From Acidimicrobiales bacterium (GTDB taxonomy: Bacteria > Actinomycetota > Acidimicrobiia > Acidimicrobiales > AC-9), in assembly GCA_036491125.1 (NCBI GenBank), contig DASXCO010000206.1, positions 1,363 to 65,362 on the forward strand: a stretch of DNA of 64,000 nt, written 5' to 3'. The notes beneath the pieces are model-generated. The model was not told where the DNA came from and searched no databases. It was given only the letters and a program-made list of their open reading frames with translations. The translations under genes and the position numbers were made by a program. Below, one piece after another: positions 3,047-37,314 of the stretch. Position 1 is the stretch's first letter. The number at the start of each line of letters is the position of its first letter.

Positions 3047-3187
3047 GCGCTCCCGGCTCGGCCGGGCCCGAGGCTCCGAGACAGCTGAGCCGGCCGTTCC
3101 GCGACGGCGACGGCGTCGTGCGGGGGCAGTTGTCTGCTCTTCCAAGGGCGGGCTCCGAGATCCACCAGCCTTGGGAGGAGTCCCGCC

Positions 3188-3588: not shown

Positions 3589-3618
3589 TGCGACAGCACC
3601 CCCCGGTGCGCTCAGCGG

Positions 3619-5247
3619 CTAGCTGTTCCCGGCGGGGCGGTGCCAGGGGCGGAAGAAACCTCCGAAGCGGCGGGGCGGCGTGACGGCGGTGGCCTCCGTG
3701 CGGTCCACTCCGACGCCGACCTCCTCGCCGCCCTCGTCCGGCCGACGGCGGCGGTCGCCCATGGCGCCGCGGGGCACGGCCTCCTCGGGCAGCGACTCGG
3801 GCGGCGGCTCCCCTTCGAAGTCGCCCGGGCGGATGTTGGCCGGGACCGTGGTGTAGCCGCCTTCGGCAGACCGCACGACCACGTTCGAGCGCTTGCGCAG
3901 TCCCGCCCCGGGAGCACGCGAGAGCTCCTTGCAGATCTGGTACGTGGCCAGGCCCACCACGATCGGAATCGTCGGGGTCCCGATTCGGAACGTCCACAGC
4001 ACCCCGTTGAGCGACACCCTGAGCGTGTTGGCCAGGACGTCGGTCGAGCTGGCCAGGAACAGCATCACGTAGAACGACAGCACGCCGACCCCGAGCCCGG
4101 TACGGACGGGTCGATCGCGGGGCCGGTCGAGCAGGTGGTGCTCCATCCGGTTCTCCTTGGTGAACCGGGCCTCGATGAACGGCCACATGTACAGAGCCGT
4201 GAAGGTCAGCCCGGGCAGGACGACCGCCGGGTAGAAGGGAGCCGAGATCAGGTACCGACCGGCGAACTGGGTCTCCCAGGCGGGCATGATCCGTAAGGCG
4301 CCGTCGAGCCAGCCCATGTACCAGTCGGGCTGCACGGCGTAGCTGACCTTGAAGGGCTCGTAGGACCCGTACAGCCAGATGGGGTTGATCTGGAACAGGC
4401 CCCCGAGGAGAGCCAGGCCGGCGAAGATGATGAAGAAGTACCCGGTCGTCTTGGCGACGTAGGTGGGCCAGAAGGACGACCCCACAACGGTTCGGTTCGT
4501 TTTCTCCTTGCCCGGGAAGTCGGTGTGTTTCTGGTGCCACATGATCCCCAGGTGGGCGACGAGAAGGCCGGCGATGACGGCGGGGATGATGAGGATGTGC
4601 AGCGAGTAGAAGCGGGGGATGATGTCGCCGTTGCCCGGGAAGTTGCCGCCCCACAGCAGGAACGCCCCCCACGTCCCGATGATCGGGAGGGACAGGAAGA
4701 TCGAGAAGGCGATGCGCAGGCCGGCGCCCGAGATCTGGTCGTCCGGCAGCGAGTACCCGATGAACCCGTTGACGATGACCAGGATCAGCATCGTGAGCCC
4801 GATCATGTAGTTGAGCTCCCGGGGCCGGCGGAAGGCCCCGGTGAAGAAGATCCGGCACAGGTGCACGACGACCGCGGCAGCGAAGATGTCGGCCGCCCAG
4901 TGGTGCATCTGGCGCATCACCAGTCCGGCCCGCACGTTGAGGCTGATGTCCACCGTCGACTGGTAGGCCTCCGAGACCCGCTGCCCCCGCAACGGGAGGT
5001 AGCTGCCGTGGTAGATGACCTCATGGGTCGAGGGCACGAAGAACAGCGTGAGGAAGATCCCCGTGATGATGAGGATCACGAAGGTGTACATGGCGATCTC
5101 GCCGAGCAGGAAGGACCAGTGATCCGGGAAGATCTTGTTCAGCGCTGTCTTCCCGATCTTGGCCACCCCGAAGCGGTCGTCGGTCCAACGCGCCAGCTCG
5201 ACCGTGCGGTCCTCGAGCGAGGGGCGCGGCGCGTCGCGTGACTTCAT
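3619..5247 (-). CDS. qcrB: cytochrome bc1 complex cytochrome b subunit
   Basis: Cytochrome b-like polytopic protein (FPDHWSFLLGEIAMY, HHWAADIF, multiple TM helices) with a long charged C-terminal tail. Start taken at ATG 5247. An alternative GTG 5265 overlaps the qcrA stop. The rest of the 649-aa ORF is upstream read-through across qcrA. Confidence 0.92.
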   Translation of the reverse strand: MKSRDAPRPSLEDRTVELARWTDDRFGVAKIGKTALNKIFPDHWSFLLGEIAMYTFVILIITGIFLTLFFVPSTHEVIYHGSYLPLRGQRVSEAYQSTVDISLNVRAGLVMRQMHHWAADIFAAAVVVHLCRIFFTGAFRRPRELNYMIGLTMLILVIVNGFIGYSLPDDQISGAGLRIAFSIFLSLPIIGTWGAFLLWGGNFPGNGDIIPRFYSLHILIIPAVIAGLLVAHLGIMWHQKHTDFPGKEKTNRTVVGSSFWPTYVAKTTGYFFIIFAGLALLGGLFQINPIWLYGSYEPFKVSYAVQPDWYMGWLDGALRIMPAWETQFAGRYLISAPFYPAVVLPGLTFTALYMWPFIEARFTKENRMEHHLLDRPRDRPVRTGLGVGVLSFYVMLFLASSTDVLANTLRVSLNGVLWTFRIGTPTIPIVVGLATYQICKELSRAPGAGLRKRSNVVVRSAEGGYTTVPANIRPGDFEGEPPPESLPEEAVPRGAMGDRRRRPDEGGEEVGVGVDRTEATAVTPPRRFGGFFRPWHRPAGNS

Positions 5248-5261
5248 CGTCGGGCGCTTGA

Positions 5262-6308
5262 TCACTGTCCCGCCGCCGTCTTCGGAGGATTCAACGTCGT
5301 CGACGTGTTGCGCTCCCAGAAGCCAGGCCCCACCGGCTCCTGGAAGTCCGACTGGGCTCTCAGGAAGCCGTCCCCGTTGTCCATGATAGGGAGCTGAGGT
5401 AAGAGGCGCGGTGCTGGTCCGAAGATGGGTCGGGCGCCGTTGAGGAGCGTGAACACCGACTGATGGCAGGGGCAGAGCAGCTGCTGGACCTGCTGCTGGT
5501 ACAGGCTGACGGGGCATCCGGCGTGGGTGCACAGCTTGGAGTAGGCCAGGTAGCCGTGTGGTGACCACGTCTCCCGCCCCGGCAGGGTTGTGATGGGCAC
5601 GGACGACGCCCTGATGAGCAGGGTCTGGGAAACCGCGTCCCCCGCGTGACCCTCGGGGAACACGGTCAGCACCCCGCCCACGTCGACGTCGTCGGCCATG
5701 ACGGGACGGCCGTCGATGCGCACCAGTCTCGAGCCGCGACGAAAGAAGGTGAAGTCCAGCGCGTTCCCGGGCCGGGGGTTGTACAGGGAGCGGAGGAACG
5801 GGAAGATCCCGACGATCGAGAAGACGCCGATCGCCGCGCCCAGGAGCTTGCCGAGAAAGCCTCGTCGCTCGACGGCCACCGAGCCCCTCGAGAAGGCTGC
5901 GCCGAAGGCCCGCCGGTCCGACTCGGGCTTGGGCAGCTCGTGACGATCCTCGACGAAGGGGCCCTGGGGCATGAGGTACTTACCCCAGGCGGCGACGCCG
6001 ACCCCCATCCCTCCCAGACCGAGCCCCAGGAGCGCGCCTTCGGCCTGGACCTGGCCGCCGAGCGAGTAGGTGATGGCCAGGCCGATGGTGGCCAGCACGC
6101 TGACGACGAAGCACAGGGCGACGAAGTTCTCGGCCCGGCGCGGGCGCTGGACCGGGATCTCGAGGCGGATGTCCTCCACTGCGGTGGCCGTCGCCGCGCC
6201 CGAGCCGGTGCTGGTCGAGCCAGCGCCGCCAGGATTGTCCCCGCCGGGGTTCTCGCCGCCCGTGCTCATGTGGTCGCTCCCGATCTCATCCTCACCGCCT
6301 GGGCTCAC
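5262..6308 (-). CDS. qcrA: cytochrome bc1 complex Rieske iron-sulfur subunit
   Basis: Rieske boxes CTHAGCP and CPCHQSVF are present, with N-terminal TM helices. It lies between qcrC and qcrB. The start may be 6308 or the internal Met at about 6269. Confidence 0.92.
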   Translation of the reverse strand: MSPGGEDEIGSDHMSTGGENPGGDNPGGAGSTSTGSGAATATAVEDIRLEIPVQRPRRAENFVALCFVVSVLATIGLAITYSLGGQVQAEGALLGLGLGGMGVGVAAWGKYLMPQGPFVEDRHELPKPESDRRAFGAAFSRGSVAVERRGFLGKLLGAAIGVFSIVGIFPFLRSLYNPRPGNALDFTFFRRGSRLVRIDGRPVMADDVDVGGVLTVFPEGHAGDAVSQTLLIRASSVPITTLPGRETWSPHGYLAYSKLCTHAGCPVSLYQQQVQQLLCPCHQSVFTLLNGARPIFGPAPRLLPQLPIMDNGDGFLRAQSDFQEPVGPGFWERNTSTTLNPPKTAAGQ

Positions 6309-7248
6309 CAGCGCCCTCCAGGCGATCCCCCTCGTCGCCGGCCGGGTCTATGTGGTCGTCATCCAACGTGTGGCCGTCATCCGAGCCGGGCGGCGTGGTC
6401 GCTCCTGCCCTGATCCCGATCCAGTAGGCCGCGAGTATCAGCACACCGAGGCCCACCACGATGGCGATGAAGCCCTCCGTCACCGGCCCCACGTGACCCA
6501 GCCCCGCGCCTCCGGGGTTGGCGGGGTGCTGCAGGTAGGTCACGTAGCGGACGACGTCGTTCACCTCCTGGTCGCTCAGGGTGCCGGGCCCGAAGCGGGG
6601 CATGTTCCCCGGCCCCGTCCGGATGGCCTCGGCGATCTGGGTGGGCGACGCCTGGTAGAGGGAAGGGGCGAAGGCACTGTTGGCCAGGGCGTCGCCCACT
6701 CCGGTGATGACGTGGCACCCGGCGCAGTTCAGCCCGAACACGTCGTTGCCGTTGGCCTGGTCAGCCGCCTGTTGGTTGAGGGCGGGGATGCCGACTCCCC
6801 CGGCGCCGAGCGACGTGACGTAGGACACGATGCCGAGCTGCTGGGTCCGGCTGAACAACACCGGCTTGCGCACGGCCTGAGCGCCCGGGTACGCCAGCGG
6901 CATCCGTCCCGTCGACACCCAGAAGTCGACGGTGGCGGCGCCCACCCCGACCAGGTTGGGGCCCCGGTCGGTCCCCTCGGCGTTGAGCCCGTGACAGCTG
7001 GAGCAGTTGTCCACGAACAGCGGCTGTCCCACGGTCGACAGGGCGGACGGAACAGGAACCGTCGGCGACGTGGTCGATGGGGCGGCCGCCGGGGTGGTCG
7101 ACGCCGTCGAGGCCCCGCTCCCAGGCGTGGTGGGAGCGGTGGACGGCTGGGCGCGCGCCGGCGTCGGCCTGCCGCCGAACGACAGCAGGCCCAGGGCGAC
7201 CACGAAGGCCACCAGTGCAGCGGGGAGAAGGAGCCGGTTGCGCATCAC
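6292..7248 (-). CDS. qcrC: cytochrome bc1 complex diheme cytochrome c subunit
   Basis: Two CxxCH heme-binding motifs (CSSCHG, CAGCHV). N-terminal signal/TM and a C-terminal hydrophobic anchor (FIAIVVGLGVLILAAYWI). Confidence 0.92.
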   Translation of the reverse strand: MMRNRLLLPAALVAFVVALGLLSFGGRPTPARAQPSTAPTTPGSGASTASTTPAAAPSTTSPTVPVPSALSTVGQPLFVDNCSSCHGLNAEGTDRGPNLVGVGAATVDFWVSTGRMPLAYPGAQAVRKPVLFSRTQQLGIVSYVTSLGAGGVGIPALNQQAADQANGNDVFGLNCAGCHVITGVGDALANSAFAPSLYQASPTQIAEAIRTGPGNMPRFGPGTLSDQEVNDVVRYVTYLQHPANPGGAGLGHVGPVTEGFIAIVVGLGVLILAAYWIGIRAGATTPPGSDDGHTLDDDHIDPAGDEGDRLEGAGEPRR

Positions 7249-7251
7249 GAT

Positions 7252-7851
7252 CTAGTGGAGGAGGAACAGTGAGGCGTAAAGACCTACCCAGACGATGTCG
7301 ACGAAATGCCAGTAGTAGGCGACGGCCTGGAACGCGGGTATCTCGCCCGGGTCGCCGCGGGGGCCGATCATCCGACCCAGCAGGGCCACCATGGCCAGCA
7401 GGCCGAGGGTGACGTGCAGCGCGTGAAGGCCGGTCATCATGAAGAACATCGACCCGTAGGCGTTGGTCTTCGGGGTGAAGTCGACCGTCAGCCACTCGTA
7501 CAGCTGGTTGGCGACGAACGCCGCACCCAGCAGGAAGCTCATGATCGTCCAGAACCGGGCCGAGCTCCGGAGGACCTTCTCCTCCTGCCACACCGCGTGC
7601 TGCATGGTCACGCTGGACATGACCAGGATGAACGTGAAGATGCCCGCCCGGATGGGATCGACGTGGGTCGACGTAGGCGGCCAGGGGTTGCCGTCGTGGG
7701 CGCGGATGGTGAAGTAGGACGCGAACAGGCCACTGAAGAACATGAGCTCGGAGGCCAGCCAGATGATGGTCCCGACGCCCACCATGGACGGGCGCTTGGC
7801 GTGCGCGGGTCCGTAGCCCGGAGTCCCCTCGACCGGGATGGCCTGAGTCAC
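7252..7851 (-). CDS. ctaE: cytochrome c oxidase subunit III
   Basis: 199 aa with five hydrophobic helices and a subunit III-like C-terminus (HFVDIVWVGLYASLFLL). It sits immediately upstream of qcrCAB, as in other actinobacteria. Confidence 0.9.
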   Translation of the reverse strand: MTQAIPVEGTPGYGPAHAKRPSMVGVGTIIWLASELMFFSGLFASYFTIRAHDGNPWPPTSTHVDPIRAGIFTFILVMSSVTMQHAVWQEEKVLRSSARFWTIMSFLLGAAFVANQLYEWLTVDFTPKTNAYGSMFFMMTGLHALHVTLGLLAMVALLGRMIGPRGDPGEIPAFQAVAYYWHFVDIVWVGLYASLFLLH

Positions 7852-10227: not shown

Positions 10228-11262
10228 GTGCCGCTCGAGGAGTCCCCGTTCCTGCGGGCCTGTCGGTGCCGGCCCACCGATCGGGTGCCGGTCTGGTTCA
10301 TGCGCCAGGCCGGTCGATCCCTTCCCGAGTACCGCGCCATGCGCGGTGACGGCAGCGTCCTGGAGGCCATCGCCCGCCCCGAGGTGGCCGCCGAGCTGAC
10401 CCTTCAGCCGGTCAGACGCTACGGCGTCGACGCCGCCATCCTGTTCTCGGACATCGTGGTCCCGGTGGAGTCGATCGGTTTCGGCGTCGACGTGGTGCCG
10501 GGGGTGGGCCCGGTCGTGGACCGCCCCTTCTCGGGTCCGGAAGACCTTTCCCGCATCAGGCCCCTCGAACCGGAGAAGGACATCCCATACGTGCTGGACA
10601 CGGTGCGCCTCGTCGTGCAGGAGCTGGACGTACCCCTCATCGGCTTCGCCGGCGGCCCGTTCACCGTGGCCAGCTACCTGGTCGAAGGCGGGCCGTCCCG
10701 CAACTACGCGCGGACCAAGACCCTGATGCGGCGCGACCCGCGGACCTGGTGCCAGGTGACGGAGCTGCTCGCTGACCTCGCCCTGGCGTCACTGCGGGCC
10801 CAGGTGCTTGCCGGCGCCAGCGCCGTCCAGCTCTTCGACAGCTGGGTCGGCGTCCTGTCCCCTGACGACTATCGGGAGCTGGTGCTGCCGGCCACCCAGC
10901 GCATCTTCTCCGGGCTGGCCGACCTGGGCGTGCCCCGCATCCACTTCGGGGTCGGTACCGGGGAGCTGCTGTCGCTCATGGCTGCGGCCGGCGCCGACGT
11001 GGTCGGGGTGGACTGGCGGGTACCCCTGGACGCGGCCCGAGAGCGGGTGGGACCAGGGCGCGCAATCCAGGGCAACCTCGACCCGGCCAGCTGCCTGGCG
11101 CCGTGGGAGGTCGTGGCGCCCCAGGCGCGCAAGGTGCTGGCCGAGGGCGGCGGTCGCCCCGGTCACGTCTTCAACCTCGGCCACGGCGTGCTGCCCGAGA
11201 CCGACCCCGACGTCCTGCACCGGATCGTCGACCTGGTCCACGAGGAGGGCCGAACCGGATGA
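10228..11262 (+). CDS. hemE: uroporphyrinogen decarboxylase
   Basis: 344 aa with the N-terminal signature PVWFMRQAGRSLPEYR and a C-terminal FNLGHGV motif. The stop overlaps the hemY start (ATGA). Confidence 0.95.
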   Translation: MPLEESPFLRACRCRPTDRVPVWFMRQAGRSLPEYRAMRGDGSVLEAIARPEVAAELTLQPVRRYGVDAAILFSDIVVPVESIGFGVDVVPGVGPVVDRPFSGPEDLSRIRPLEPEKDIPYVLDTVRLVVQELDVPLIGFAGGPFTVASYLVEGGPSRNYARTKTLMRRDPRTWCQVTELLADLALASLRAQVLAGASAVQLFDSWVGVLSPDDYRELVLPATQRIFSGLADLGVPRIHFGVGTGELLSLMAAAGADVVGVDWRVPLDAARERVGPGRAIQGNLDPASCLAPWEVVAPQARKVLAEGGGRPGHVFNLGHGVLPETDPDVLHRIVDLVHEEGRTG

Positions 11263-12668
11263 CGGCCGGCCGCGAGGTGGTGGTCGTGGGCGGCGGCATC
11301 ACCGGTCTGGCGGCGGCGTGGGAGCTCTCGGGCCCAGCGGCCGGCGATCGTCCCGCCACGGTGACGGTCCTCGAGGCCGGGACCCGCCTCGGGGGCAAGA
11401 TCGGCAGTCAGGATCTGGGCGGTCAGCCGGTCGACTCGGGGCCCGACGCCTTCGTCGCCCGCGTGCCTGATGGCGTAGCTCTCTGTCACGAGCTCGGGCT
11501 GGGCGAGGAGCTGATCGCACCGGCGACCAACACCGCGCTCATCTGGACGCGGGGCCGTCTGCGCCACCTGCCCGACGACACCGTGCTGGGGGTGCCGACG
11601 CGGCTGCGGACGCTGGGGGCCTCGAAGATCGTCTCGCCCGCAGGGCTGGCGCGCGCCGGCCTCGACCTCGTCCTTCCCGCCGACGCCTCCGCCGACGACC
11701 GCTCCGTCGCCGCGTTCATCGACGCCCGCCTCGGTCGAGAGGTCCGCGAGCGCCTCGTCGACCCGCTCCTCGGCGGCATCCACGCCGGGTCGACCGAGCA
11801 CCTCAGCCTGGCTGCCACCGCGCCGCAGCTCGACGCGGCGAGATGCGAGCACCGGAGCCTGCTGCGCGGCCTGCGCCCGTCGCCACCCGAGCCCGGCGCC
11901 GCGCCCGCCCCCGTCTTCCTCACCCCGCGCCGCGGCCTCGGCCAGCTCGTCCAGGTGCTGGCCCACCAGCTGGCCGAACGAGGTGTCGAGCTGCGCACCG
12001 CGACACCGGTCGAGAAGCTCGAGCGAGCAGAGGGACGGTGGCAGGTGGGCAACCCCCACGGGCCCGTGGTGGCGGATCACGTGGTCCTGACCGTGCCGTC
12101 GTTCGTCGCCGCCGACCTGGTGGCGTCCCAACGACCCGACGCCGCTTCCGAGCTCGCCGCCGTCGAGCACGCCTCGGTGGTCCTCGTGACCCTGGCCTAT
12201 CCATCCAGCGCCGTCTCGCTGACGCCGGGAGTCAGCGGGTTTCTCGTTCCCCGGGTGGACGGGCGCCTCATGACTGCGTGCACGTGGCTGTCGGCGAAGT
12301 GGCCTCACGTGGGGCGCCCCGGCCAGACCCTGCTACGGGTCTCAGCCGGCCGCTGGGGAGACGACCGGGCCGTGCGAATGGCCGACGACGAGCTCCTGGG
12401 GCGGCTGCGGGCCGAGCTGCAGGAGGCCATGGGCATCACGGCCCGCCCCGACGCCGCCGCTGTCACTCGCTGGCCGTGCGCCTTTCCCCAGTACCAGGTC
12501 GGGCACCTGGAGCGGATGGCCCGCATCCAGGGCGCCCTTGCCCGCCAGCCGGCCCTGGCCGTCGCCGGCGCCTCCTACGGAGGGGTGGGTATCCCCGCCT
12601 GCATAGGCCAGGGCCGGCGGGCGGCCCGGGCCGTGCTCGACCAGCTGGCAACTGGCGCCCGGCGATGA
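11259..12668 (+). CDS. hemY: protoporphyrinogen/coproporphyrinogen III oxidase (HemY/CgoX family, FAD)
   Basis: In-frame ATG 11259 gives MTAGREVVVVGGGITGLAAAWEL, a Rossmann FAD-binding motif. About 469 aa and directly coupled to hemE. Confidence 0.9.
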   Translation: MTAGREVVVVGGGITGLAAAWELSGPAAGDRPATVTVLEAGTRLGGKIGSQDLGGQPVDSGPDAFVARVPDGVALCHELGLGEELIAPATNTALIWTRGRLRHLPDDTVLGVPTRLRTLGASKIVSPAGLARAGLDLVLPADASADDRSVAAFIDARLGREVRERLVDPLLGGIHAGSTEHLSLAATAPQLDAARCEHRSLLRGLRPSPPEPGAAPAPVFLTPRRGLGQLVQVLAHQLAERGVELRTATPVEKLERAEGRWQVGNPHGPVVADHVVLTVPSFVAADLVASQRPDAASELAAVEHASVVLVTLAYPSSAVSLTPGVSGFLVPRVDGRLMTACTWLSAKWPHVGRPGQTLLRVSAGRWGDDRAVRMADDELLGRLRAELQEAMGITARPDAAAVTRWPCAFPQYQVGHLERMARIQGALARQPALAVAGASYGGVGIPACIGQGRRAARAVLDQLATGARR

Positions 12669-18893: not shown

Positions 18894-20162
18894 TCAGCGC
18901 TGCTCGAGCGGCACGTAGTGGCGCTCGTCCTCGCCGCCGTAGAGCTGGCGGGGGCGGGCGATCTTGGAGTCCTGGTCGAGGAGCTCCGTCCAGTGGGCGA
19001 GCCAACCCGAGGTCCGCGGTATCGCGAACAGCACCGGGAACATGTCGATCGGAAAGCCCATCGCCTGGTAGATCAACCCCGAGTAGAAGTCGACGTTGGG
19101 ATAGAGACGACGAGAGGTGAAGTACTCGTCTGACAGGGCCCGCTCCTCGAGCTTGAGGGCGATGTCGAGCAGCGGGTTCTTACCGGTGACGTCGAAGACC
19201 TCGTCAGCGGTGCGCTTGATGATCCTGGCCCGCGGGTCGTAGTTCTTGTACACGCGGTGGCCGAAGCCCTGGAGGCGGCCCTCGCCGCGCTTGACGGCAG
19301 CGACGAAGTCGTCGACGTGGTCGATCGAGCCGATCTCGGTGAGCATGCGGATGACAGCCTCGTTGGCCCCGCCGTGGCGGGGACCGTAGAGGGCGGCGCA
19401 GGCGGCGGCGCAGGCGGAATACGGATCGGCGTGGGACGAGCCGACGACGCGCATGGCCGTGGTCGAGCAGTTCTGCTCGTGGTCGGCGTGGAGGATGAAC
19501 AGCACGTCGAGGGCGTGGGCGAGGGCCGGGTTGGCGTCGAAGCGGGGCTCAGCGATCTTCCACATCATGGACAGGAAGTTCGCCGCGAAACCCAGGGAGT
19601 TGTCCGGGTAGACAAACGGCATGCCGACGCTGAACCGGTGGGCGGCGGCTGCCAGCGTGGGCATCTTGGCGATGAGTCGGGTGATCTGCTTGTCACGGGA
19701 CTCGGGGTCGAAGATGTCCTTGGCGTCGAGATAGAACGTCGACAGGGCTGCCACCGCCGAGACGAGCATGCCCATGGGATGGGCGTCGTAGTGAAAGCCC
19801 TCGAGAAAGCGCTTGCGCACGTTCTCGTGGATGAAGGTGTGGTGGGTGATCTCACGGCGCCAGACCTCGAATTGGGCCGGCGTGGGCAGCTCGCCCTTCA
19901 GGAGCAGGTAGGCGACCTCCAGGTACGAGGACCGCTGGGCCAGCTCGTCGATCGGGTAGCCGCGGTACCTGAGGATGCCCGCCTCGCCGTCGAGGAACGT
20001 GATGCCGCTCTCGCACGCCGCCGTGGAGGTGAAGCCGGGATCGTAGAACCAGACGCCGGGCAGGAGCTTCGACCATGCCGTCGCCGAGATCCCGCCGTTC
20101 TCGATGGGGATCTCGACCGACTGGCCGTTGCGGTTGTCGGTGATGGTGACGCTCTCTGGCAC
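18894..20162 (-). CDS. gltA: citrate synthase (type II)
   Basis: 422 aa. Contains GPRHGGANE, GFGHRVYKNYDPRA and PNVDFYSG, the catalytic His/His/Asp motifs. Confidence 0.95.
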   Translation of the reverse strand: MPESVTITDNRNGQSVEIPIENGGISATAWSKLLPGVWFYDPGFTSTAACESGITFLDGEAGILRYRGYPIDELAQRSSYLEVAYLLLKGELPTPAQFEVWRREITHHTFIHENVRKRFLEGFHYDAHPMGMLVSAVAALSTFYLDAKDIFDPESRDKQITRLIAKMPTLAAAAHRFSVGMPFVYPDNSLGFAANFLSMMWKIAEPRFDANPALAHALDVLFILHADHEQNCSTTAMRVVGSSHADPYSACAAACAALYGPRHGGANEAVIRMLTEIGSIDHVDDFVAAVKRGEGRLQGFGHRVYKNYDPRARIIKRTADEVFDVTGKNPLLDIALKLEERALSDEYFTSRRLYPNVDFYSGLIYQAMGFPIDMFPVLFAIPRTSGWLAHWTELLDQDSKIARPRQLYGGEDERHYVPLEQR

Positions 20163-20226: not shown

Positions 20227-20661
20227 TCAGGAACGGTGCCGGTAGACGTTGGTGTCCCGGAGCTCGAACCCCAGGCGGCGATAGAGGCGGTTGGCGGCCT
20301 CCCGGGAGGGCCGGGAGGTGAGGTCGACGCTCCTGACGCCGGCCGCCGCCGCCCGCCGGATGGCCTCCTCGTTGAGGGCCTCGCCGACGCCCCGCCCCCG
20401 GGCGCCGTCGTCGACCACCACGTCCTCGATCCACGCCCGCATCCCTGTCGGGATGCGGAACATCACGAGGGTCAGCGTGCCGACGATCCCGCCCTCGGGC
20501 GGGCGGGCGACGAGCAGCGTGGTCGCCGGAGACGCGACGATCTCGGCCAGCTCGGCCGGGCCCGGAGGCGGCGAGGACGACGACAGCTGGGGCACCAGCC
20601 CGGTGATGGCCTCGACCAGCTCGGCGGAGACCTCGGTCGCCGCCTCGACCCGCACCTCCAC
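20227..20661 (-). CDS. GNAT family N-acetyltransferase
   Basis: 144 aa with an acetyl-CoA-binding motif (VVVDDGARGRGVGEAL) and ANRLYRRLGF. The GTG start directly abuts the TAA stop of the upstream CBS/citrate-synthase gene. Confidence 0.85.
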   Translation of the reverse strand: MEVRVEAATEVSAELVEAITGLVPQLSSSSPPPGPAELAEIVASPATTLLVARPPEGGIVGTLTLVMFRIPTGMRAWIEDVVVDDGARGRGVGEALNEEAIRRAAAAGVRSVDLTSRPSREAANRLYRRLGFELRDTNVYRHRS

Positions 20662-22212
20662 TTACTCGGGGTCGGGCACGGGCTGTGGAGGCGGTGGCCC
20701 CGTGTAGTGGGCGCTCGGGCGGATGAGGCGGTTGTCGCCGGCCTGCTCGAGGATGTGGGCGCACCAGCCGATCGTGCGGCTGCTGGAGAAGGTCGGGGTG
20801 AACAGTGCCCGGGGCAGCCCGCACTCGCTCATCACGACGCCGGCGTAGAACTCGACGTTGGTGTACAGCGATCGGCCCGGCTTGAGCTCGCTGAGCACAC
20901 CCACCACGGTCTGCTCGACCTGTCGGGCGAAGTCCGCCAGCGGCCCGCCGAGGCCGAGGGCCACATCCCGCAGCATGAGCGAGCGGGGGTCGTCGGTCTT
21001 GTAGACCCGATGGCCGAAGCCCATGATCCGCCCGCCCCGCTGGACCACGTCACGGATATAGGCGTCGGCGTTCTCGGGTCGACCGATGGCGTCGAGCATG
21101 TCGAGGGCCCGACTGGGAGCGCCGCCGTGGAGCGGACCGGAGAGCGCGCCGATGGCACCGACCACCGCGGCGCCGAGATCGGCGCCGGTCGAGGTGATGA
21201 CCCGGGCGGTGAACGTCGACGAGTTGAAGCCGTGGTCGATGGTGGAGATGAGGTACTTCTCGAGGGCCCGGGCCTTGGCCGGATCCGGCACCTCTCCGCT
21301 GAGCATGTAGAGGTAGTTGGCCGCGTAGTCGAGCTCCGGGTGCGGCTCGATCGGCTCGTGGCCCTCGCTGAGTCGGTAGAGCGCCATCACGAGCGTCGGG
21401 ACGAGCGCGCACATCCGCATGGCCTCGTCCTCCAGTTCCGAGGCGCCGAGGTCCAGGCTGGCCCGAAAGCCGAGCGAGCTGGCGCTCAGCGACACCGCCG
21501 ACCGCAGCGCGTCGAGCGCCACGAACCGGTCGCCCGCAGCGGCGATGGGGGGCAGCAGCGGACGCACCGAGTCCGGGATCGTGCGGTAGGCGCGCACCCG
21601 CCGGCGTAGCTCCTCACGCTGAGCGGCGGTGGGCAGCTCTCCGAAGAACACGAGGTGCCACACGTCCTCGAGCGAGCGCTTCTCGGCCAGCTCGACGGCG
21701 GAGTACTGGCGGTAGTGGTAAAAGCCCTCGAGGCCGCGAACGTCGCCGATGGTGGTCTCGGCGACGACGACACCCTCGAGGCCCTTGGGGACATCGGTGA
21801 CGGCCTGCTCGACCGGTCGGATCTGGGCGATGCGCATGAGGTCGCGCATCGAGACCACGCCGACCAGCTCGGTGTCCTCGACGACGGGGATGTGCCGGTA
21901 CCCGTGCTCGGCCAGGTTGCGCCACGCCTCGGCGACCTCGACGTGGGGCGACACCGTGTCGGGCCGCTCTGTCATCCACTCGGACACCTTGGTCACGGAC
22001 GCGTCCGCGCCCGAGGCGGCGAAGCGAACGAGGTCGCGCTCGGTCAGGATGCCGACCGGGCGTCGTTCCTCGACGACCACGACCGATCCCAGCCGGTGCT
22101 CGGACATCCGCCCAGCCGCCTCGGCCAGGCTCTCGCGGGGCGCGGCCGTGATGGCGGGGCTGCTCATGACGTCGGCGACGGTACGGGTGCGGGGTCCGGT
22201 GGCGTCGGTCAT
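20662..22212 (-). CDS. CBS-pair domain fused to a citrate synthase-family domain
   Basis: 516 aa. The N-terminal ~130 aa hold two CBS repeats (VADVMSSPAITAAP...GILTERDLVRF and ...GVVSMRDLMRI). The C-terminal ~380 aa are citrate-synthase-like, with GPLHGGAPS and GFGHRVYKTDDPRS. The third catalytic motif reads NVEFYAG rather than NVDFY. Confidence 0.88.
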   Translation of the reverse strand: MTDATGPRTRTVADVMSSPAITAAPRESLAEAAGRMSEHRLGSVVVVEERRPVGILTERDLVRFAASGADASVTKVSEWMTERPDTVSPHVEVAEAWRNLAEHGYRHIPVVEDTELVGVVSMRDLMRIAQIRPVEQAVTDVPKGLEGVVVAETTIGDVRGLEGFYHYRQYSAVELAEKRSLEDVWHLVFFGELPTAAQREELRRRVRAYRTIPDSVRPLLPPIAAAGDRFVALDALRSAVSLSASSLGFRASLDLGASELEDEAMRMCALVPTLVMALYRLSEGHEPIEPHPELDYAANYLYMLSGEVPDPAKARALEKYLISTIDHGFNSSTFTARVITSTGADLGAAVVGAIGALSGPLHGGAPSRALDMLDAIGRPENADAYIRDVVQRGGRIMGFGHRVYKTDDPRSLMLRDVALGLGGPLADFARQVEQTVVGVLSELKPGRSLYTNVEFYAGVVMSECGLPRALFTPTFSSSRTIGWCAHILEQAGDNRLIRPSAHYTGPPPPQPVPDPE

Positions 22213-26777: not shown

Positions 26778-27614
26778 TCACGGGCGCGCACTCTGCAGCG
26801 CACCGGCGGCCCGGGAGGCCGCCCCGAGGGAACGGTTGAGGTTGCCGGACCGGAAGCCTTCGAGATCGAGCGTCACATACGTGTACCCGGCCTCGCGGAC
26901 CGCGGCGACGATCGCCTCCCGGCACTCGATCGCCCGGGCCAGCTCGGCGCCGTCGAGCTCGATGCGGGCGAGCTCTCCGTAATGGCGGACCCGCAGCTGA
27001 CCGAAGCCGAGCAGGCGGAGGGCCGACTCCGCCCGTGCCACCGACTCGAGGACACCGATGGTGACGGGCGTGCCGTACGGGACCCTCGACGCCAGGCACG
27101 CCGCTGCCGGTTTGTCCCAGGTGCGCAGGCCGAGGAGCTTGGACGCAGCGCGCACGTCCGCCTTGGTGAACCCGGCCTCGACGAGCGGGAACACGGCCCC
27201 GCCCTCCTGCGCCGCCTGCTGTCCGGGGCGATGGTCGCCCAGGTCGTCGACGTTGACACCGAGGGCGACGACAGCGTTCTCGGCGGCGGCGATCGGGCCC
27301 AGGGCCGCCATGAGCTCGGCCTTGCAGTGGTAGCAGCGGGTCCCGTCGTTGGCCGAGTAGTCGGGGTTCGCCAGCTCGTCGGTCGCCACCGAGGTCCAGC
27401 GCAGTCCCCACTCGGCGACCAGGGCCTCGCAGTCGGCGAGCTCTTCGGGCGCCAGCGACGGCGAGACCGCGGTGGCGCAGAGGACCCGATCGGGGCCCAG
27501 CGCGTCGGTGGCGATCCGGGCCAGGAAGGCGGAGTCGGCGCCCCCGCTGAACGCGACCACCATGTGACCGTGTCGGCGAAGCTCGTGACGCAGACCGTCG
27601 AGGTCGGGAGCCAT
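26778..27614 (-). CDS. LarE-like PP-loop ATP pyrophosphatase (TIGR00268-type, three conserved Cys)
   Basis: 278 aa from ATG 27614; the rest of the 496-aa ORF is read-through. PP-loop motif VVAFSGGADSAF is present. Cysteines occur in RCYHCK and AAACLASRVPYG. The start overlaps the hemQ stop (ATGA). Confidence 0.85.
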   Translation of the reverse strand: MAPDLDGLRHELRRHGHMVVAFSGGADSAFLARIATDALGPDRVLCATAVSPSLAPEELADCEALVAEWGLRWTSVATDELANPDYSANDGTRCYHCKAELMAALGPIAAAENAVVALGVNVDDLGDHRPGQQAAQEGGAVFPLVEAGFTKADVRAASKLLGLRTWDKPAAACLASRVPYGTPVTIGVLESVARAESALRLLGFGQLRVRHYGELARIELDGAELARAIECREAIVAAVREAGYTYVTLDLEGFRSGNLNRSLGAASRAAGALQSARP

Positions 27615-28297
27615 CACGGGCGGGCGATCTGCTCGAGCACCTCTTCCGTGCCACCGATCAGCCCGGTGTAGAAGGGTCCGAACTCGGCGTACTGGGCCGA
27701 CACCTCGTCGAAGCGCATCGTGTAGACGACATCCTTGAGGTCGTCGGGACGGACCGCGAACAGCGTGACCCCCCACTCGAAGTCGTCGATGCCGGTCGAG
27801 CCGGTGATCAGCTGCAGCACCCGGCCGGCGAAGGTGCGGCCGGTGGCTCCATGGCTTCGCATCAGCGCGTCGCGCTCCTGGTATGGGAGGGCATACCAGT
27901 TCTGGCCCTCGTTGCGGCGCTTGGACATCGGGTAGAAGCAGATGGCCCGCTTGCCCTCGGGCGGCAGCTGCGGGTACAGCCGGGGCCGCTTCATCTCGTC
28001 GGGCATGCCCTGGGCGTACTCCGAGACCTCGGTGAGCGAGACGTAGGAGTCGGTCACCTCGATCCCCGCCGCCTGCAGAGCGGACTGGAAGGCCCGCAGT
28101 CGCCACAGGTCGGGCCCCAGGGCGAGGAAGCCGAGGTCGGCCTTGTGCCCGAGGACGGCGAACGTGACGACCTGCTGGTCGTCGGCCTGGGCCGACTTCA
28201 CGATATTGATCACCGCCTCGCGGCTGACATCGGGACCGCACCTGCCGAACAGATGGAGGACACCCCATCCGGTCGACGGTACGAGGGGCTCCGGCAC
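27614..28297 (-). CDS. hemQ: coproheme decarboxylase (HemQ/ChdC)
   Basis: 227 aa of the chlorite-dismutase family. Motifs: FYPMSKRRNEGQNWY, FEWGVTLF, MRFDEVSAQYAEFGPFYTG. Confidence 0.93.
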   Translation of the reverse strand: MPEPLVPSTGWGVLHLFGRCGPDVSREAVINIVKSAQADDQQVVTFAVLGHKADLGFLALGPDLWRLRAFQSALQAAGIEVTDSYVSLTEVSEYAQGMPDEMKRPRLYPQLPPEGKRAICFYPMSKRRNEGQNWYALPYQERDALMRSHGATGRTFAGRVLQLITGSTGIDDFEWGVTLFAVRPDDLKDVVYTMRFDEVSAQYAEFGPFYTGLIGGTEEVLEQIARP

Positions 28298-28385: not shown

Positions 28386-30063
<1,678 letters not shown>

Positions 30064-30209: not shown

Positions 30210-30485
30210 TCAGCCTCCAGCGACGGCAGGGATGATCGACAGCGTCTGTCCCTCGGGCACCGGGGTATCCAGACCCTGCAGGAAGCGGACGTCCTCGTCG
30301 GCGAGGAACACGTTGACGAACCGGCGCAGCGTCCCGGCGTCGTCGAAGAGCCGCCCGGCGAACCCAGGATGGGAGGCGTCGAGCGCCTTGAGGACCTCAC
30401 CGACGGTGGACCCCTCGACGGCGACCTCGCCGGCGCCGTTGGTCAGAGTGCGGAGCTGGGTCGGCACCCGGACGGTCACGCTCAT
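30210..30485 (-). CDS. MoaD/ThiS/CysO-like sulfur-carrier protein (ends in Gly-Gly)
   Basis: 91 aa (MSVTVRVPTQLRTL...TLSIIPAVAGG-stop). The C-terminal GG has no extension. ATG 30485 overlaps the stop of the ThrC-like gene (ATGA). The 412-aa ORF-track entry is out-of-frame read-through. Confidence 0.85.
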   Translation of the reverse strand: MSVTVRVPTQLRTLTNGAGEVAVEGSTVGEVLKALDASHPGFAGRLFDDAGTLRRFVNVFLADEDVRFLQGLDTPVPEGQTLSIIPAVAGG

Positions 30486-31732
30486 GGCCGGTCGATCTGC
30501 TCGAGCTCGGCCAGCGCCTCGGCGAAGGCGTCCATCGACGGGGCGATGGTGGCGCTGGGGCCCGCGTGGGGCGTCACCGCGTCGACCGTCTTCAACCCGT
30601 GACCAGTGACGTAGGCGACCACCCGCTCGTCGGAGCGGACGACGCCCGCCGCCGCCAGCTTGGCCAGCGTCGCGACCGTCACGCCCCCCGCCGTCTCGGC
30701 GAAGATGCCCTCGGTGCGGGCCAGCAACCCAATGCCCTCGACGATCTCCTCGTCGGTGACGGCGTCCAGGGCGCCGCCCGTCGAGCGCACGGTGTCCAGG
30801 GCGTACCAACCGTCCGCCGGGTCGCCGATGGCCAGCGACTTGGCGATCGTCGAGGGCCGGACCGGGCGGATGTGGTCGACGCCGTCGGCGAAGGCGGTGG
30901 CCACCGGCGCGCACCCGGTGGCCTGAGCCCCGGAGATGCGCACCTCGGGAGCCTCGGGCAGCAGGCCCACCTGGCCCAGCTCCTGAAAACCCTTGTGGAT
31001 CTTGGTCAACTGGCTGCCGGATCCGACGGGTACGACCACGTGGTCGGGGGCCTCCCATCCCAGCTGCTCGGCCACCTCGAAGGCGAGGGTCTTCGACCCC
31101 TCGGCGTAGTAGGTGCGCACGTTCACGTTGACGAACGCCCACGACGGGTGCTCCGCCGTCAGCTCCGCGCACAGCCGGTTCACGTCGTCGTAGTTGCCCT
31201 CGACGGCGATGAGGCGGCCGCCGTAGACGGCGGTGGTCACGATCTTTGCCAGCTCGAGGTCGTGCGGGATGAACACGAAAGACTCCATGCCCGCCCGGGC
31301 GGCGTGGGCGGCCACGGCGTTCGCCAGGTTGCCGGTCGAGGCGCACGCCGCCACCTTGAACCCCAGCTGGCGGGCCTTGGTGAGGGCCACCGACACGACC
31401 CTGTCCTTGAACGACCCCGTCGGGTTCACGGTGTCGTTCTTGACCCACAGCTCCCCGAGCCCGAGCTCGGAGGCCAGGCGGTCGGCCCGGACCAGCGGCG
31501 TGAAGCCGGCCCCGAGGTCGACAGGGGCCTCGGCCTCGACCGGCAGCAGGTCGGCGTAGCGCCAGATGGTGTCGGGCCCGGCGGCGATGGTGCCGGCGCT
31601 CACGTGGTCGGCGATGGCCTCGTAGTCGTAGGTGACCTCGAGGGGCCCGAAACAGTAGTCACAGACGTGCAGGGCCTCGGCCGGGTACACGCGCGCGCAT
31701 TCCCGGCAGCGAAGGCCTTCTATGAACGCCAC
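30482..31732 (-). CDS. threonine synthase-family PLP enzyme with N-terminal zinc ribbon (candidate homocysteine synthase)
   Basis: 416 aa with N-terminal CRECARVY...CDYCFGPL. PLP-lysine motif NPTGSFKDR is present and the fold is ThrC-like. GTG start preceded by GAGGAGG. An S-box-like RNA lies immediately upstream. Confidence 0.9.
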   Translation of the reverse strand: MAFIEGLRCRECARVYPAEALHVCDYCFGPLEVTYDYEAIADHVSAGTIAAGPDTIWRYADLLPVEAEAPVDLGAGFTPLVRADRLASELGLGELWVKNDTVNPTGSFKDRVVSVALTKARQLGFKVAACASTGNLANAVAAHAARAGMESFVFIPHDLELAKIVTTAVYGGRLIAVEGNYDDVNRLCAELTAEHPSWAFVNVNVRTYYAEGSKTLAFEVAEQLGWEAPDHVVVPVGSGSQLTKIHKGFQELGQVGLLPEAPEVRISGAQATGCAPVATAFADGVDHIRPVRPSTIAKSLAIGDPADGWYALDTVRSTGGALDAVTDEEIVEGIGLLARTEGIFAETAGGVTVATLAKLAAAGVVRSDERVVAYVTGHGLKTVDAVTPHAGPSATIAPSMDAFAEALAELEQIDRP

Positions 31733-31741
31733 AGCTCCTCC

Positions 31742-31842
31742 TCATCGCTCGGGCATTGGCACCTGGCGCCCCCGCTTCTCAGCGGGTCTGGCGCTGGTTG
31801 TCGCGGCGTCGTTGGGCCCGGTCCCTCGACCGCTCTGGATGA
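31742..31842 (-). promoter_or_regulatory. S-box (SAM-I / SAM-IV clan) riboswitch aptamer
   Basis: The minus strand reads UUCAUCCAGAGCGGUCGAGGGACCGGGCCCAACGACGCCGCGACAACCAGCGCC...CCCGCUGAGAAGCGGG...GGCGCCAGGUGCCAAUGCCCGAGCGAUGAGGAGG. It has P1 UCAUC/GAUGA and the conserved CAGAG, GAGGGA, GGCCC, CAACC and GGUGCCAAU blocks in the right order. P4 is minimal. The call is by eye; no covariance model was run. Confidence 0.8.
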
Positions 31843-32844
31843 ATGGCTGCATCAAGTGTGATCGACCGGGGCCGGCCCGTCAAAGCGGATACCTGGGGAG
31901 ATGGAGCGGAAGCACTGGTTGTGGTGGATGATGGCGCCATGGTCCCCGGCCGGTCACGGGCCTTTCACCACCGCGATTTTCCCCTCGAATCCCTCGCCGC
32001 GGCCAAGCGGGGCCGGCGGGTGTCGGTCTGCCTCCCGGCGCGTGACGAGTCAGCGACCATCGGCCCGATCCTGCGGGCGCTGCTGGGCGGTCGGGTCGCG
32101 GTGTCCGGTCTCGTCGACGAGGTCCTCGTCGTCGACGACGGCTCGACCGACGATACCGCCGAGGTCGCCCGATCGGAGGGGGCCCGGGTGGTGCGGGCGG
32201 CCGACGTGCTCGGCCAGCACGGCGGGGAGCCGGGCAAGGGCCAGGCGCTGTGGAGCGCGGTGTTCGCCAGCGAGGGGGACGTCGTCGCCTTTCTCGACGC
32301 CGATGTGACCAACTTTCAGCCCTCGTTCGTCGCCGGGCTGCTGGGTCCCGTGCTCACGAACGACGACGTGGCCCTGGTCAAGGCGTTCTACGACCGCCCG
32401 CTCGACGGGCAGGCGACAGGTGGAGGGCGGGTGACCGAGCTGGTTGCCAGGCCTCTCATCGCCGTGCTGCTCCCGCACCTGTCCGGCATCGTCCAGCCGC
32501 TCGCTGGTGAGTGCGCGGCACCGCGGGAGGTGCTCGAGCGGCTGCCGTTCGCGTACGGGTATGGGGTGGAGCTGGGGCTGCTGGCCGACGTCGCCGCCCG
32601 TTTCGGCCTGGACTCGATCGCCGAGGTCGACCTGGGCGTGCGGGCTCATCGGAACCGACCGGTGTCCGAGCTGGCACCCCAGGCCGTCGCGATCGTCCAG
32701 GTCGCCCTCGATCGCGCCGGGGTGCCAGCTCGGGCGCAGACGTCGGCGACGCTCGTCGTTCCTGGCGCCGCGCCGATGACGGTGTCGTCCGGGGATCTCC
32801 CGCCCCTGCTCGAGGTCCCTGCCTACACCCGCCGCAGCGCCTGA
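31843..32844 (+). CDS. gpgS: glucosyl-3-phosphoglycerate synthase (GT81)
   Basis: Motifs: RVSVCLPARDESATIGPILRAL, VLVVDDGSTDDT, GKGQALW, FLDADV (DxD). The true start is probably downstream (GTG 31921/31924 or ATG 31939). The 31843 start would abut the riboswitch on the other strand and leave no promoter space. Confidence 0.85.
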   Translation: MAASSVIDRGRPVKADTWGDGAEALVVVDDGAMVPGRSRAFHHRDFPLESLAAAKRGRRVSVCLPARDESATIGPILRALLGGRVAVSGLVDEVLVVDDGSTDDTAEVARSEGARVVRAADVLGQHGGEPGKGQALWSAVFASEGDVVAFLDADVTNFQPSFVAGLLGPVLTNDDVALVKAFYDRPLDGQATGGGRVTELVARPLIAVLLPHLSGIVQPLAGECAAPREVLERLPFAYGYGVELGLLADVAARFGLDSIAEVDLGVRAHRNRPVSELAPQAVAIVQVALDRAGVPARAQTSATLVVPGAAPMTVSSGDLPPLLEVPAYTRRSA

Positions 32845-37196: not shown

Positions 37197-37269
37197 GCCG
37201 GTGTGGCGCAGTTGGTAGCGCAGGCGACTTGTAATCGCCAGGTCGTGGGTTCGAATCCCACCGCCGGCT
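37197..37269 (+). tRNA. tRNA-Thr (anticodon UGU)
   Basis: A 73-nt cloverleaf folded by hand. Acceptor GCCGGUG/CGCCGGC, D-arm GCGC-AGUUGGUA-GCGC, anticodon arm GGCGA-CUUGUAA-UCGCC. T-arm GUGGG-UUCGAAU-CCCAC, discriminator U, no encoded CCA. Confidence 0.93.
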
Positions 37270-37314
37270 CTAAGAACGACCAGGTAGATGGGATCAGGAA
37301 GGGAGCGACTTCTG

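Follow-up and report, generated by a model that had tools for sequence, protein, structure and literature searches.

A SAM-I riboswitch without P4 upstream of a predicted MetM/MetO-type methionine operon in an uncultured Acidimicrobiales bacterium

The MetM/MetO pathway, in which O-phosphohomoserine and a carrier protein thiocarboxylate give rise to homocysteine, was described in Streptomyces albulus by Hasebe, Adachi, Maruyama and Hamano (2024, Appl Environ Microbiol 90:e01247-24), work that is referred to here as it is summarised in PMC12172450 and in a GapMind 2026 preprint. According to these summaries, a SAM riboswitch is located upstream of metM in S. albulus (PMC12172450; GapMind 2026 preprint), and the system comprises MetM/MetO together with Mec and MoeZ, with Mec being responsible for the maturation of MetO (GapMind 2026 preprint). 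The names MetM and MetO and their role in Streptomyces, which the earlier note on this DNA had given, agree with what both sources cite from Hasebe et al. 2024. Genes of the MetM type are routinely mis-annotated as threonine synthase (PMC12172450; GapMind 2026 preprint). A Microcystis homologue, 51.6% identical to MetM according to its authors and encoded by a gene that they describe as having no riboswitch, is reported to moonlight as a threonine deaminase and, in an assay performed without MetO thiocarboxylate, did not clearly form homocysteine with Na2S (PMC12172450).

The locus described here lies on the minus strand of the window (the whole 64-kb stretch of DNA that was analysed) and is assigned to this known MetM/MetO system, with neither its chemistry nor its RNA class being new. 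Very probably, its two genes form a MetM/MetO-type operon of the methionine branch that SAM switches off at the initiation of translation. The reading of the earlier note, in which O-phosphohomoserine and the carrier thiocarboxylate give homocysteine, is supported: the three checks that it had named as able to refute it, concerning a SAM-clan match, the grouping of the enzyme and the fold of the carrier, all came out for that reading. Shared with the system of S. albulus are a ThrC-homologous predicted homocysteine synthase, an adjoining carrier of the MoaD/ThiS type, an upstream SAM riboswitch and, as predicted here, O-phospho-L-homoserine as substrate. The differences lie in the host, here an uncultured Acidimicrobiales bacterium, in the carrier, which ends in GG-stop, so that the Mec maturation step should be dispensable, and in the aptamer, which possesses no P4 and would act through a ribosome-binding site inside P1. 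A protein thiocarboxylate is also said to deliver the sulfur of homocysteine in the HcyS/HcyF/HcyD/MetY system of Wolinella succinogenes, reportedly described by Krishnamoorthy and Begley in 2011. That system reportedly employs O-acetylhomoserine and the fold-type I enzyme MetY, whereas the pair identified here contains a ThrC-like enzyme predicted to act on O-phosphohomoserine. With the CysM/CysO/Mec/MoeZ system of M. tuberculosis (PDB 3dwg), the locus has in common the donation of sulfur from a carrier thiocarboxylate to a fold-type II PLP enzyme acting on a phosphorylated amino acid; however, the PLP enzyme of the window is derived from ThrC rather than being a CysM, is under SAM riboswitch control and has O-phosphohomoserine as predicted substrate and homocysteine as predicted product.

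Examination of the whole 64-kb window with cmscan identified a single riboswitch match, to RF00162 (SAM-I) at 31739-31845 on the minus strand, and a rerun on 401 nt returned the identical match. Its score of 50.4 bits (E = 1.3e-8) is only 6 bits over the gathering score of 44.4, and the outermost part of P1 as defined by Rfam contains two mismatches. As cmscan lists a single, top-scoring family per clan, SAM-I outscores SAM-IV and SAM-I/IV for this RNA. The latter two classes were also dropped on anatomy, since the ribosome-binding site and start codon follow directly after P1 and leave no room for their downstream P4. The S-box core blocks and perfect P3 hairpin claimed in the earlier note were all located in the sequence, namely P1 UUCAUC/GAUGAG (31838-31843 pairing with 31741-31746), CAGAG, GAGGGA, CCGGGCCC, CAACC and GGUGCCAAU, with the P3 tip reading CCCGCU-GAGA-AGCGGG. 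A pseudoknot is formed by CGGG at 31817-31820 and CCCG at 31750-31753.

P4, which had been read as nearly absent with the class left undecided, was found to be deleted in the Rfam alignment (17 model positions skipped) and is gone in all 12 aligned aptamers, that of the window among them. Actinomycetota aptamers with a very short P4 or none have been described as natural variation, and the loss of P4 reportedly reduces SAM affinity (PMC12714719). The missing P4 is thus compatible with membership of SAM-I, the class to which the element was resolved, and the idea of a new P4-less variant was dropped, as such aptamers are already described for Actinomycetota (PMC12714719). The RNA shares P1, P2 with its K-turn, P3, the pseudoknot and the conserved core with the P4-less actinobacterial subgroup of SAM-I (RF00162) that employs direct sequestration of the ribosome-binding site, from which it differs in nothing essential, making it one further natural example of this subgroup. 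It is a member of the SAM-I class and is predicted to bind SAM and to repress the downstream gene.

The same riboswitch was found immediately 5’ of the orthologue in at least 13 loci of metagenome-assembled genomes other than that of the window and in Nonomuraea, giving at least 14 related loci, so that a SAM-clan match above the gathering threshold is accompanied by retention of the element in orthologous loci. Minimum-free-energy folding of the leader gave no signal (z = -0.19) and is uninformative in such a GC-rich RNA, for which reason the structure was judged by covariation. Among the 12 aligned P4-less sequences, P1, P2 (with its K-turn), P3 and the pseudoknot between the P2 loop and J3-4 were found to be kept by compensatory changes, with 96% of cells paired and 11 pairs changed on both sides, two of these in the pseudoknot. 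None of 500 shuffles was as good, and all slid controls were much lower.

The 3’ strand of P1 leads straight into the Shine-Dalgarno sequence and the GUG start codon, as had been claimed previously. The ribosome-binding site GAGGAGGAG (31735..31743, minus strand) shares three bases with the 3’ strand of P1 (GAUGAG), its first three being the final three of that strand, and the GTG start (31730-31732, minus strand) is situated 8 nt past that strand. The arrangement of GAUGAGGAG followed by 4-11 nt and then the start codon is kept in the P4-less loci, and SAM-I expression platforms in which the 3’ half of P1 contains the ribosome-binding site have been described (PMC2258182). Aptamer and gene lie too close together to accommodate a terminator, and a terminator scan returned one terminator-like site only, on the opposite strand within the metM coding region. 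Upstream of the aptamer, a putative promoter can be read from the sequence by comparison with the aligned loci, with a -35 hexamer TTGACG (31878..31883, minus strand) and, 17 nt past it, a candidate -10 hexamer CACACT (31855..31860, minus strand). The pattern TTGACN, a spacer of 17-18 nt and nAnnnT, ending 7-12 nt before P1, occurs in nine of the 12 loci that lack P4, that of the window among them. A scan for the strict sigma-70 consensus gave no promoter. This putative promoter probably sets the start of transcription a few bases 5’ of the aptamer.

From this anatomy and the known behaviour of the class, it may be proposed that at high levels of SAM the aptamer is occupied by its ligand and P1 is locked. 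Because the 3’ strand of P1 overlaps the ribosome-binding site, the 30S subunit would then be unable to load, and neither metM nor the translationally coupled metO would be translated.

The second gene of the operon, the metO-like gene (30210..30485, minus strand), encodes a 91-amino-acid sulfur carrier of the ThiS/MoaD family (PF02597 at 1.3e-14) ending in AVAGG-stop. Its start overlaps the stop of metM in an ATGA at 30482-30485, which implies co-translation of the two genes as far as can be judged from the sequence. Both the reading frame with its terminus and the ATGA overlap had been noted earlier and were confirmed, and the beta-grasp fold expected of the protein is borne out by its match to M. 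tuberculosis CysO (3dwg_C), the closest solved relative, over the full length at E = 4e-21 and by a structural model that aligns with the CysO structures 4n6e_B and 3dwg_C at a TM of 0.83 (45-48% identical in the structural alignment). The carrier was also matched by the model of the archaeal SAMP1 ubiquitin-like modifier (NCBIfam NF041918), with a score of 62 lying just over the cut-off of 60. Considering the bacterial host, the CysO structures as closest solved relatives and the coupling to a PLP enzyme, the match is most likely misleading for annotation.

The similarity of the carrier to CysO, the partner of CysM in the complex 3dwg, raises the question of a cysteine route of the CysM/CysO kind, in which O-phosphoserine and the carrier thiocarboxylate would yield cysteine and SAM, as a general sulfur signal, would repress the route. 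The enzyme encoded beside the carrier is however of the ThrC family and not a CysK/CysM (it scores 49.6 bits with TIGR01136, for which 344 is required), the related loci L014 and L016 hold a separate PALP enzyme besides their MetM-like gene, and the ask-hom-thrB context seen in relatives is that of O-phosphohomoserine synthesis, which together make a cysteine route extremely unlikely and leave the methionine branch as the preferred assignment.

The first gene (metM-like, 30482..31732, minus strand) encodes a 416-amino-acid PLP enzyme of fold-type II and of the ThrC family, predicted to be an O-phosphohomoserine-dependent homocysteine synthase on the grounds of its PALP domain (1.2e-73), its clade and its signature residues. 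The earlier note had reported such a reading frame with the SFKDR lysine and an N-terminal Cys4 ribbon, and both were verified: the Schiff-base lysine is Lys109 within GSFKDR, in a conserved SFKDR motif, and the ribbon consists of Cys9/12/24/27, all four of which are invariant in close homologues. The gene product passes the NCBIfam cut-offs for threonine synthase (TIGR00260, 305 bits against 167; NF006050, 308.2 against 303), and passing that of TIGR00260 explains the routine annotation as threonine synthase. Its best solved relatives are ThrCs, and every homologue retrieved carries the name threonine synthase, the mislabelling that had been foreseen. Taken at face value, these matches would describe an ordinary threonine synthase that by chance lies behind a SAM riboswitch, with the small protein being an unrelated MoaD/ThiS carrier.

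The phylogeny places the enzyme elsewhere. Neighbour joining of 87 sequences groups it with those of the related loci L001-L021 in a monophyletic clade separate from the solved ThrCs of B. subtilis and Aquifex, and so outside the bona fide threonine synthases, a check that had been proposed beforehand. Identity was 59% to a Microcystis paralogue listed as 'thrC (metM)' and 53.5% to the Nonomuraea orthologue, compared with 37-39% to canonical ThrCs (37% for that of Microcystis). The link to the characterized MetM of S. albulus is indirect and passes through the Microcystis homologue; tblastn against plasmids with the window and Nonomuraea queries gave no match in Streptomyces, and a large protein search for it seeded with the Nonomuraea sequence returned only Streptosporangiales. 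With canonical ThrCs (PDB 2zsj, 6cgq, 1uim, 2d1f) the enzyme has in common the fold, the PLP lysine motif and, as predicted here, the substrate O-phosphohomoserine, but it differs from them by its low identity, an extra N-terminal Cys4 ribbon, the linkage to a carrier gene and a SAM riboswitch, and the replacement of approximately ten ThrC-invariant positions.

Sites with no or almost no variation among 58 ThrCs were found to be replaced in all 22 clade members at T->L136, S->A137, F->Y181, S->N204, N->R206, R->Y209, Q->S213, A->S299 and R/K->A301, with D->T382 found in 95% of the clade. Residues 136, 137, 204, 206, 209 and 213 correspond to the T and S of STGNTS, the S, N and R of NSVNPxR and the Q of EGQKT of canonical ThrC. 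The ten-position signature also separates the paralogue pairs of Nonomuraea and of Microcystis. We take the signature positions to surround the phosphate and water site of ThrC, with the STGNTS threonine and the NPYR arginine presumably being those that bind the substrate phosphate in the T. thermophilus ThrC structures; a literature search on the roles of ThrC Thr88/Arg160 returned nothing usable. It is tentatively suggested, as a reading that is less likely than not, that these roughly ten substitutions represent the switch from a threonine synthase to a homocysteine synthase dependent on a carrier thiocarboxylate, and that this has not already been so stated in the literature. The clade was seen in Actinomycetota, Chloroflexota, Nitrospirota, Thermodesulfobacteriota, Dormibacterota, Cyanobacteria, Nitrososphaerota and Thermoproteota. 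Should the suggestion be true, methionine synthesis by way of O-phosphohomoserine would be widespread and almost wholly mis-annotated, and not a peculiarity of Streptomyces.

Under low SAM, by analogy with CysO and the MetO of S. albulus, a MoeZ/ThiF-type E1 encoded elsewhere would adenylate MetO, leading to a thiocarboxylate at its C-terminus, the Gly-Gly end of the carrier indicating that it is already mature. MetM, as an enzyme descended from threonine synthase, would eliminate phosphate from O-phospho-L-homoserine, and homology with the S. albulus system suggests that the MetO thiocarboxylate would attack C-gamma, in place of water at C-beta, giving homocysteine. As MetM would draw on O-phosphohomoserine, it would compete for it with threonine synthase, and SAM would set the share going to methionine. 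In the proposed logic, SAM controls the split of O-phosphohomoserine between threonine and methionine. A parallel exists in plants, where threonine synthase and cystathionine gamma-synthase meet at a branch point. Both genes are mis-named by current pipelines, the enzyme as threonine synthase and the carrier as something near archaeal SAMP1, and metabolic reconstructions of Acidimicrobiia and of many uncultured lineages would consequently show a false methionine gap and an additional thrC that is spurious. For re-annotation, a simple rule can be built from the riboswitch, the linkage to a carrier gene and the residue signature.

The gene neighbourhoods of relatives were drawn from a contig scan that represents a sample and not a census, with counts applying among the matches listed. 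Among these, a carrier gene was present within about 1.3 kb downstream of the enzyme gene in 19 of the 21 clade loci (immediately downstream in most), compared with none of 59 loci of canonical thrC. At least four relatives keep a canonical thrC, on the same chromosome in Nonomuraea and in the same locus in L013 (ask-hom-thrC-thrB-metM-metO), L015 and L021 (both metM-metO-thrC-HomK-like-ask). Within the 64-kb window, no MoeZ/ThiF, Mec, thrB or canonical thrC was found. This retention of thrC, the strict linkage of the carrier gene to the clade among the matches listed and the co-translation implied by the ATGA overlap, added to the separate clade and to the replacement of ThrC-invariant residues such as the threonine of STGNTS and the arginine of NPYR, make it very unlikely that the enzyme is an ordinary threonine synthase.

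The exceptions to the linkage are L010 and L017, in which the enzyme gene has no adjacent carrier gene. Together with the threonine deaminase activity reported for the 59%-identical Microcystis protein and the lack of clear homocysteine from Na2S (PMC12172450), they would fit a clade enzyme with another role, acting with free sulfide or another nucleophile or deaminating threonine or O-phosphohomoserine, with MetO serving another pathway or being regulatory. Against this, control by a SAM riboswitch, which the Microcystis gene does not have (PMC12172450), points to the methionine branch, the Microcystis assay contained no carrier thiocarboxylate, and the carrier linkage among the matches listed is joined by translational coupling in the window. 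Such a role is considered unlikely, with carrier-dependent homocysteine synthesis remaining the preferred function. The arrangement of the window, a riboswitch followed by metM and an adjacent metO, is repeated in Nonomuraea. In L014 and L016, ThiF, further ThiS/MoaD genes and the second PALP enzyme were located beside metM, along with a sulfite-reductase-like gene in L016. In the more distant relatives L009 and L017, the aptamer was found to possess P4 and to be followed by a platform consisting of a hairpin plus a U-run.

Scanning of the 64-kb window with Rfam covariance models returned a single riboswitch match, a SAM-I aptamer (RF00162) at 31739-31845 (-) that scored 50.4 bits (E = 1.3e-8 for the whole window; gathering score 44.4 bits) and spanned the full length of the model (positions 1-108) with P4 deleted. 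All of the S-box core blocks listed in the earlier note were present, and the P4 helix it had described as nearly absent is missing, with 17 model positions skipped in the alignment. P1 is formed by UUCAUC (31838-31843) and GAUGAG (31741-31746) on the minus strand, and its 3' strand, as had been proposed, leads directly into the purine run GAGGAGGAG (31735-31743 (-)) and the GTG start codon of the metM-like gene (31730-31732 (-)). The aptamer is predicted to bind SAM, and the ribosome-binding site of the metM-like gene would be occluded. Both unusual features of the aptamer are already in the literature, one being the placement of a ribosome-binding site in the 3' side of P1, known as a SAM-I expression platform (PMC2258182), and the other the very short or absent P4, described for an Actinomycetota SAM-I group that is still functional with lower affinity (PMC12714719).

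RF00162 matches were also identified directly 5' of the orthologous gene at 13 loci of other genomes (L001-L009, L011, L012, L017 and L019), as well as in the cultured actinomycete Nonomuraea gerenzanensis (68.7 bits, with P4). Alignment of the 12 P4-less sequences, window included, showed an invariant P1 and compensatory changes both in the helices P2 and P3 and in the pseudoknot that joins the P2 loop to J3/4, with 96% of cells paired and 11 pairs changed on both sides; none of 500 shuffles matched this result, and slid controls were 33-47% paired. At the P4-less loci the start codon lies within about 15 nt of the aptamer, leaving no space for a terminator, and the more distant L009 and L017 have P4 as well as a hairpin with a trailing U-run. 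A promoter-like motif common to related loci (TTGACN, 17-18 nt, nAnnnT) occurs at nine of the 12 P4-less loci, including the window (putative -35 at 31878-31883 (-), putative -10 at 31855-31860 (-)). As the motif ends 7-12 nt 5' of P1, the metM-like mRNA probably starts at the aptamer. The longest ORF of a divergent GT2 glycosyltransferase (31843-32844 (+)) would, if started at 31843, extend over both the aptamer and the putative metM promoter; its Pfam domain starts only at residue 61, so that the true start is probably a downstream GTG or ATG within 31921-32020.

The metM-like ORF (30482-31732 (-), 416 aa) encodes the claimed ThrC-family PLP enzyme, with the lysine motif GSFKDR and Cys9/12/24/27. 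Only a PALP domain was identified with Pfam, and the protein passes the NCBIfam threonine-synthase models. Its best solved relatives are ThrCs, to which it aligns only from about residue 52, making the Cys4 ribbon an additional N-terminal element. A homologue scan with one genome per species gave at least 80 loci, and among the matches listed L001-L021 were 49-85% identical over the full length, with all others at 42% or below; homologues in Acidimicrobiales MAGs were 97% identical. Neighbour-joining placed the window protein together with L001-L021 in one clade apart from true ThrC; the B. subtilis and Aquifex ThrCs of solved structure branch elsewhere, as do the second paralogues of L013, L015 and L021. 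Among the matches listed, positions (near-)invariant in 58 ThrCs carry another residue throughout this clade: T to L136, S to A137, F to Y181, S to N204, N to R206, R to Y209, Q to S213, A to S299 and R/K to A301 (numbering of the window protein) in all 22 members, and D to T382 in 95%. The same pattern tells apart the two paralogues in Nonomuraea, and likewise those in Microcystis. In the T. thermophilus ThrC structures, several of the ThrC residues replaced here presumably bind the phosphate of the substrate, which helps water to add, and their loss would fit an altered second half-reaction.

The stop codon of the metM-like gene overlaps the start of the 91-aa metO-like ORF (30210-30485 (-)) as ATGA (30482-30485), and the latter ends AVAGG-stop, both as noted earlier. 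Its assignment as a MoaD/ThiS/CysO-type carrier held: it matches PF02597, its closest solved relatives are the CysO proteins of M. tuberculosis (3dwg_C, E = 4e-21, full length) and A. orientalis (4n6e), and its single-sequence AlphaFold model (pLDDT 72) adopts the beta-grasp fold, with a TM of 0.83 on these structures. Among the matches listed, a carrier homologue lies immediately or shortly 3' of the enzyme gene at 19 of the 21 clade loci, compared to 0 of the 59 others. These carriers mostly end GG-stop, with a few extended (GGADSVT, GGAFIM, GGV), for which a Mec-type peptidase would be needed. With 62 bits, the window carrier also passes the 60-bit cut-off of NF041918, the NCBIfam equivalog model of the archaeal modifier SAMP1, so that the NCBI pipeline, which uses these models, could label it 'ubiquitin-like small modifier protein 1'.

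Downstream, groEL (28386-30008 (-)) is preceded by a near-perfect CIRCE operator, TTAGCAGTC-N9-GAGTGCTAA (30037-30063 (-)), about 30 nt 5' of its start, indicating its own HrcA-type control and agreeing with an operon of two genes. Within the 64-kb window no MoeZ/ThiF, Mec, thrB, hom, metX/metY or second thrC was found, and the carrier thiocarboxylate would be formed by an E1 encoded elsewhere.

The Streptomyces precedent named in the earlier note is described in PMC12172450 and a GapMind 2026 preprint, both citing Hasebe et al. 2024: MetM, a ThrC homologue, converts O-phospho-L-homoserine to homocysteine by means of the sulfur carrier MetO, which is activated by MoeZ and matured by Mec. Both also place a SAM riboswitch upstream of S. 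albulus metM and report frequent mis-annotation of MetM as threonine synthase. An identity of 33% between B. subtilis ThrC and MetM is given in a 2026 preprint. The window shares with S. albulus a ThrC-homologous enzyme, a carrier and an upstream SAM riboswitch. The earlier interpretation is supported: the locus is probably a homocysteine synthase operon of the MetM/MetO type, controlled at translation by a P4-less SAM-I riboswitch, and the MetM-like enzyme would act on O-phosphohomoserine by gamma-replacement. A Microcystis protein, labelled "thrC (metM)" by its authors and reported as 51.6% identical to S. albulus MetM, provides the chief caveat, since PMC12172450 reports it as a threonine deaminase in assays without carrier thiocarboxylate; the window protein is 59% identical to it. 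As the MetM/MetO system is already known, the locus would be a further member, in an uncultured Acidimicrobiales bacterium, and its practical value lies in annotation correction.

The order riboswitch-metM-metO-groEL recurs in Nonomuraea (L081), where a canonical thrC, whose product shares 56.5% identity with B. subtilis ThrC, adjoins thrB 9 Mb from the metM-like gene. The Nonomuraea record (NZ_LT559118.1 in PLSDB; L081, L082; 11.85 Mb, 10 features annotated) is filed as 'plasmid I', yet carries groEL, thrC and thrB and is evidently the chromosome. At more distant loci the metM-metO pair lies inside aspartate-pathway or sulfur-carrier clusters. In the Chloroflexi MAG locus L013 (ask-hom-thrC-thrB-metM-metO), a T-box leader (7116-7542 (+), 104 bits) is situated directly 3' of the cluster and the locus has no SAM riboswitch, so that metM-metO regulation differs between phyla. 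The Nitrospirota-type L015 (3265-4503) and L021 (2756-3997) carry metM-metO-thrC-phosphoglycerate-mutase-like (HomK-type)-ask, with a canonical thrC, so that a single cluster holds the whole O-phosphohomoserine branch point; the HomK/ThrB2 type is discussed as an alternative homoserine kinase in the GapMind 2026 preprint. L016 of a Thermodesulfobacteriota MAG (1778-5263) has a metM-like gene with genes behind it for a small ferredoxin protein resembling sulfite/nitrite reductase, ThiS fused to NIL, ThiF and another PALP enzyme, and looks like a self-contained carrier-based sulfur-assimilation module; L014 holds metM, MoaD, a PALP enzyme, MoaD, ThiF and ThiS.

Elsewhere in the window, tRNA-Thr(UGU) (37197-37270 (+)) is followed by about 10 kb (37.3-47 kb) at 63-66% G+C, compared to about 70%, with a weak GC3 signal, encoding an NAD-epimerase, a GT2 glycosyltransferase, a class-III aminotransferase, a GNAT protein and three large ORFs lacking a Pfam match (718, 388 and 366 aa); this region is possibly a cell-surface sugar island gained by horizontal transfer. 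Two neighbouring citrate-synthase genes (18894-20162 (-) and 20662-22212 (-)) have just one small gene between them, for a GNAT acetyltransferase (20227-20661); the second citrate-synthase gene possesses an N-terminal CBS-domain pair, an unusual fusion suggesting a paralogue controlled by an adenosyl ligand. An actinobacterial-type respiratory block (ctaC, ctaF, qcrCAB, ctaE) and coproporphyrin-dependent haem genes (hemE, protoporphyrinogen/coproporphyrinogen oxidase and chlorite-dismutase-like HemQ), which together occupy 136-7851, 10228-12668 and 27614-28297, are consistent with an aerobic Actinomycetota host.
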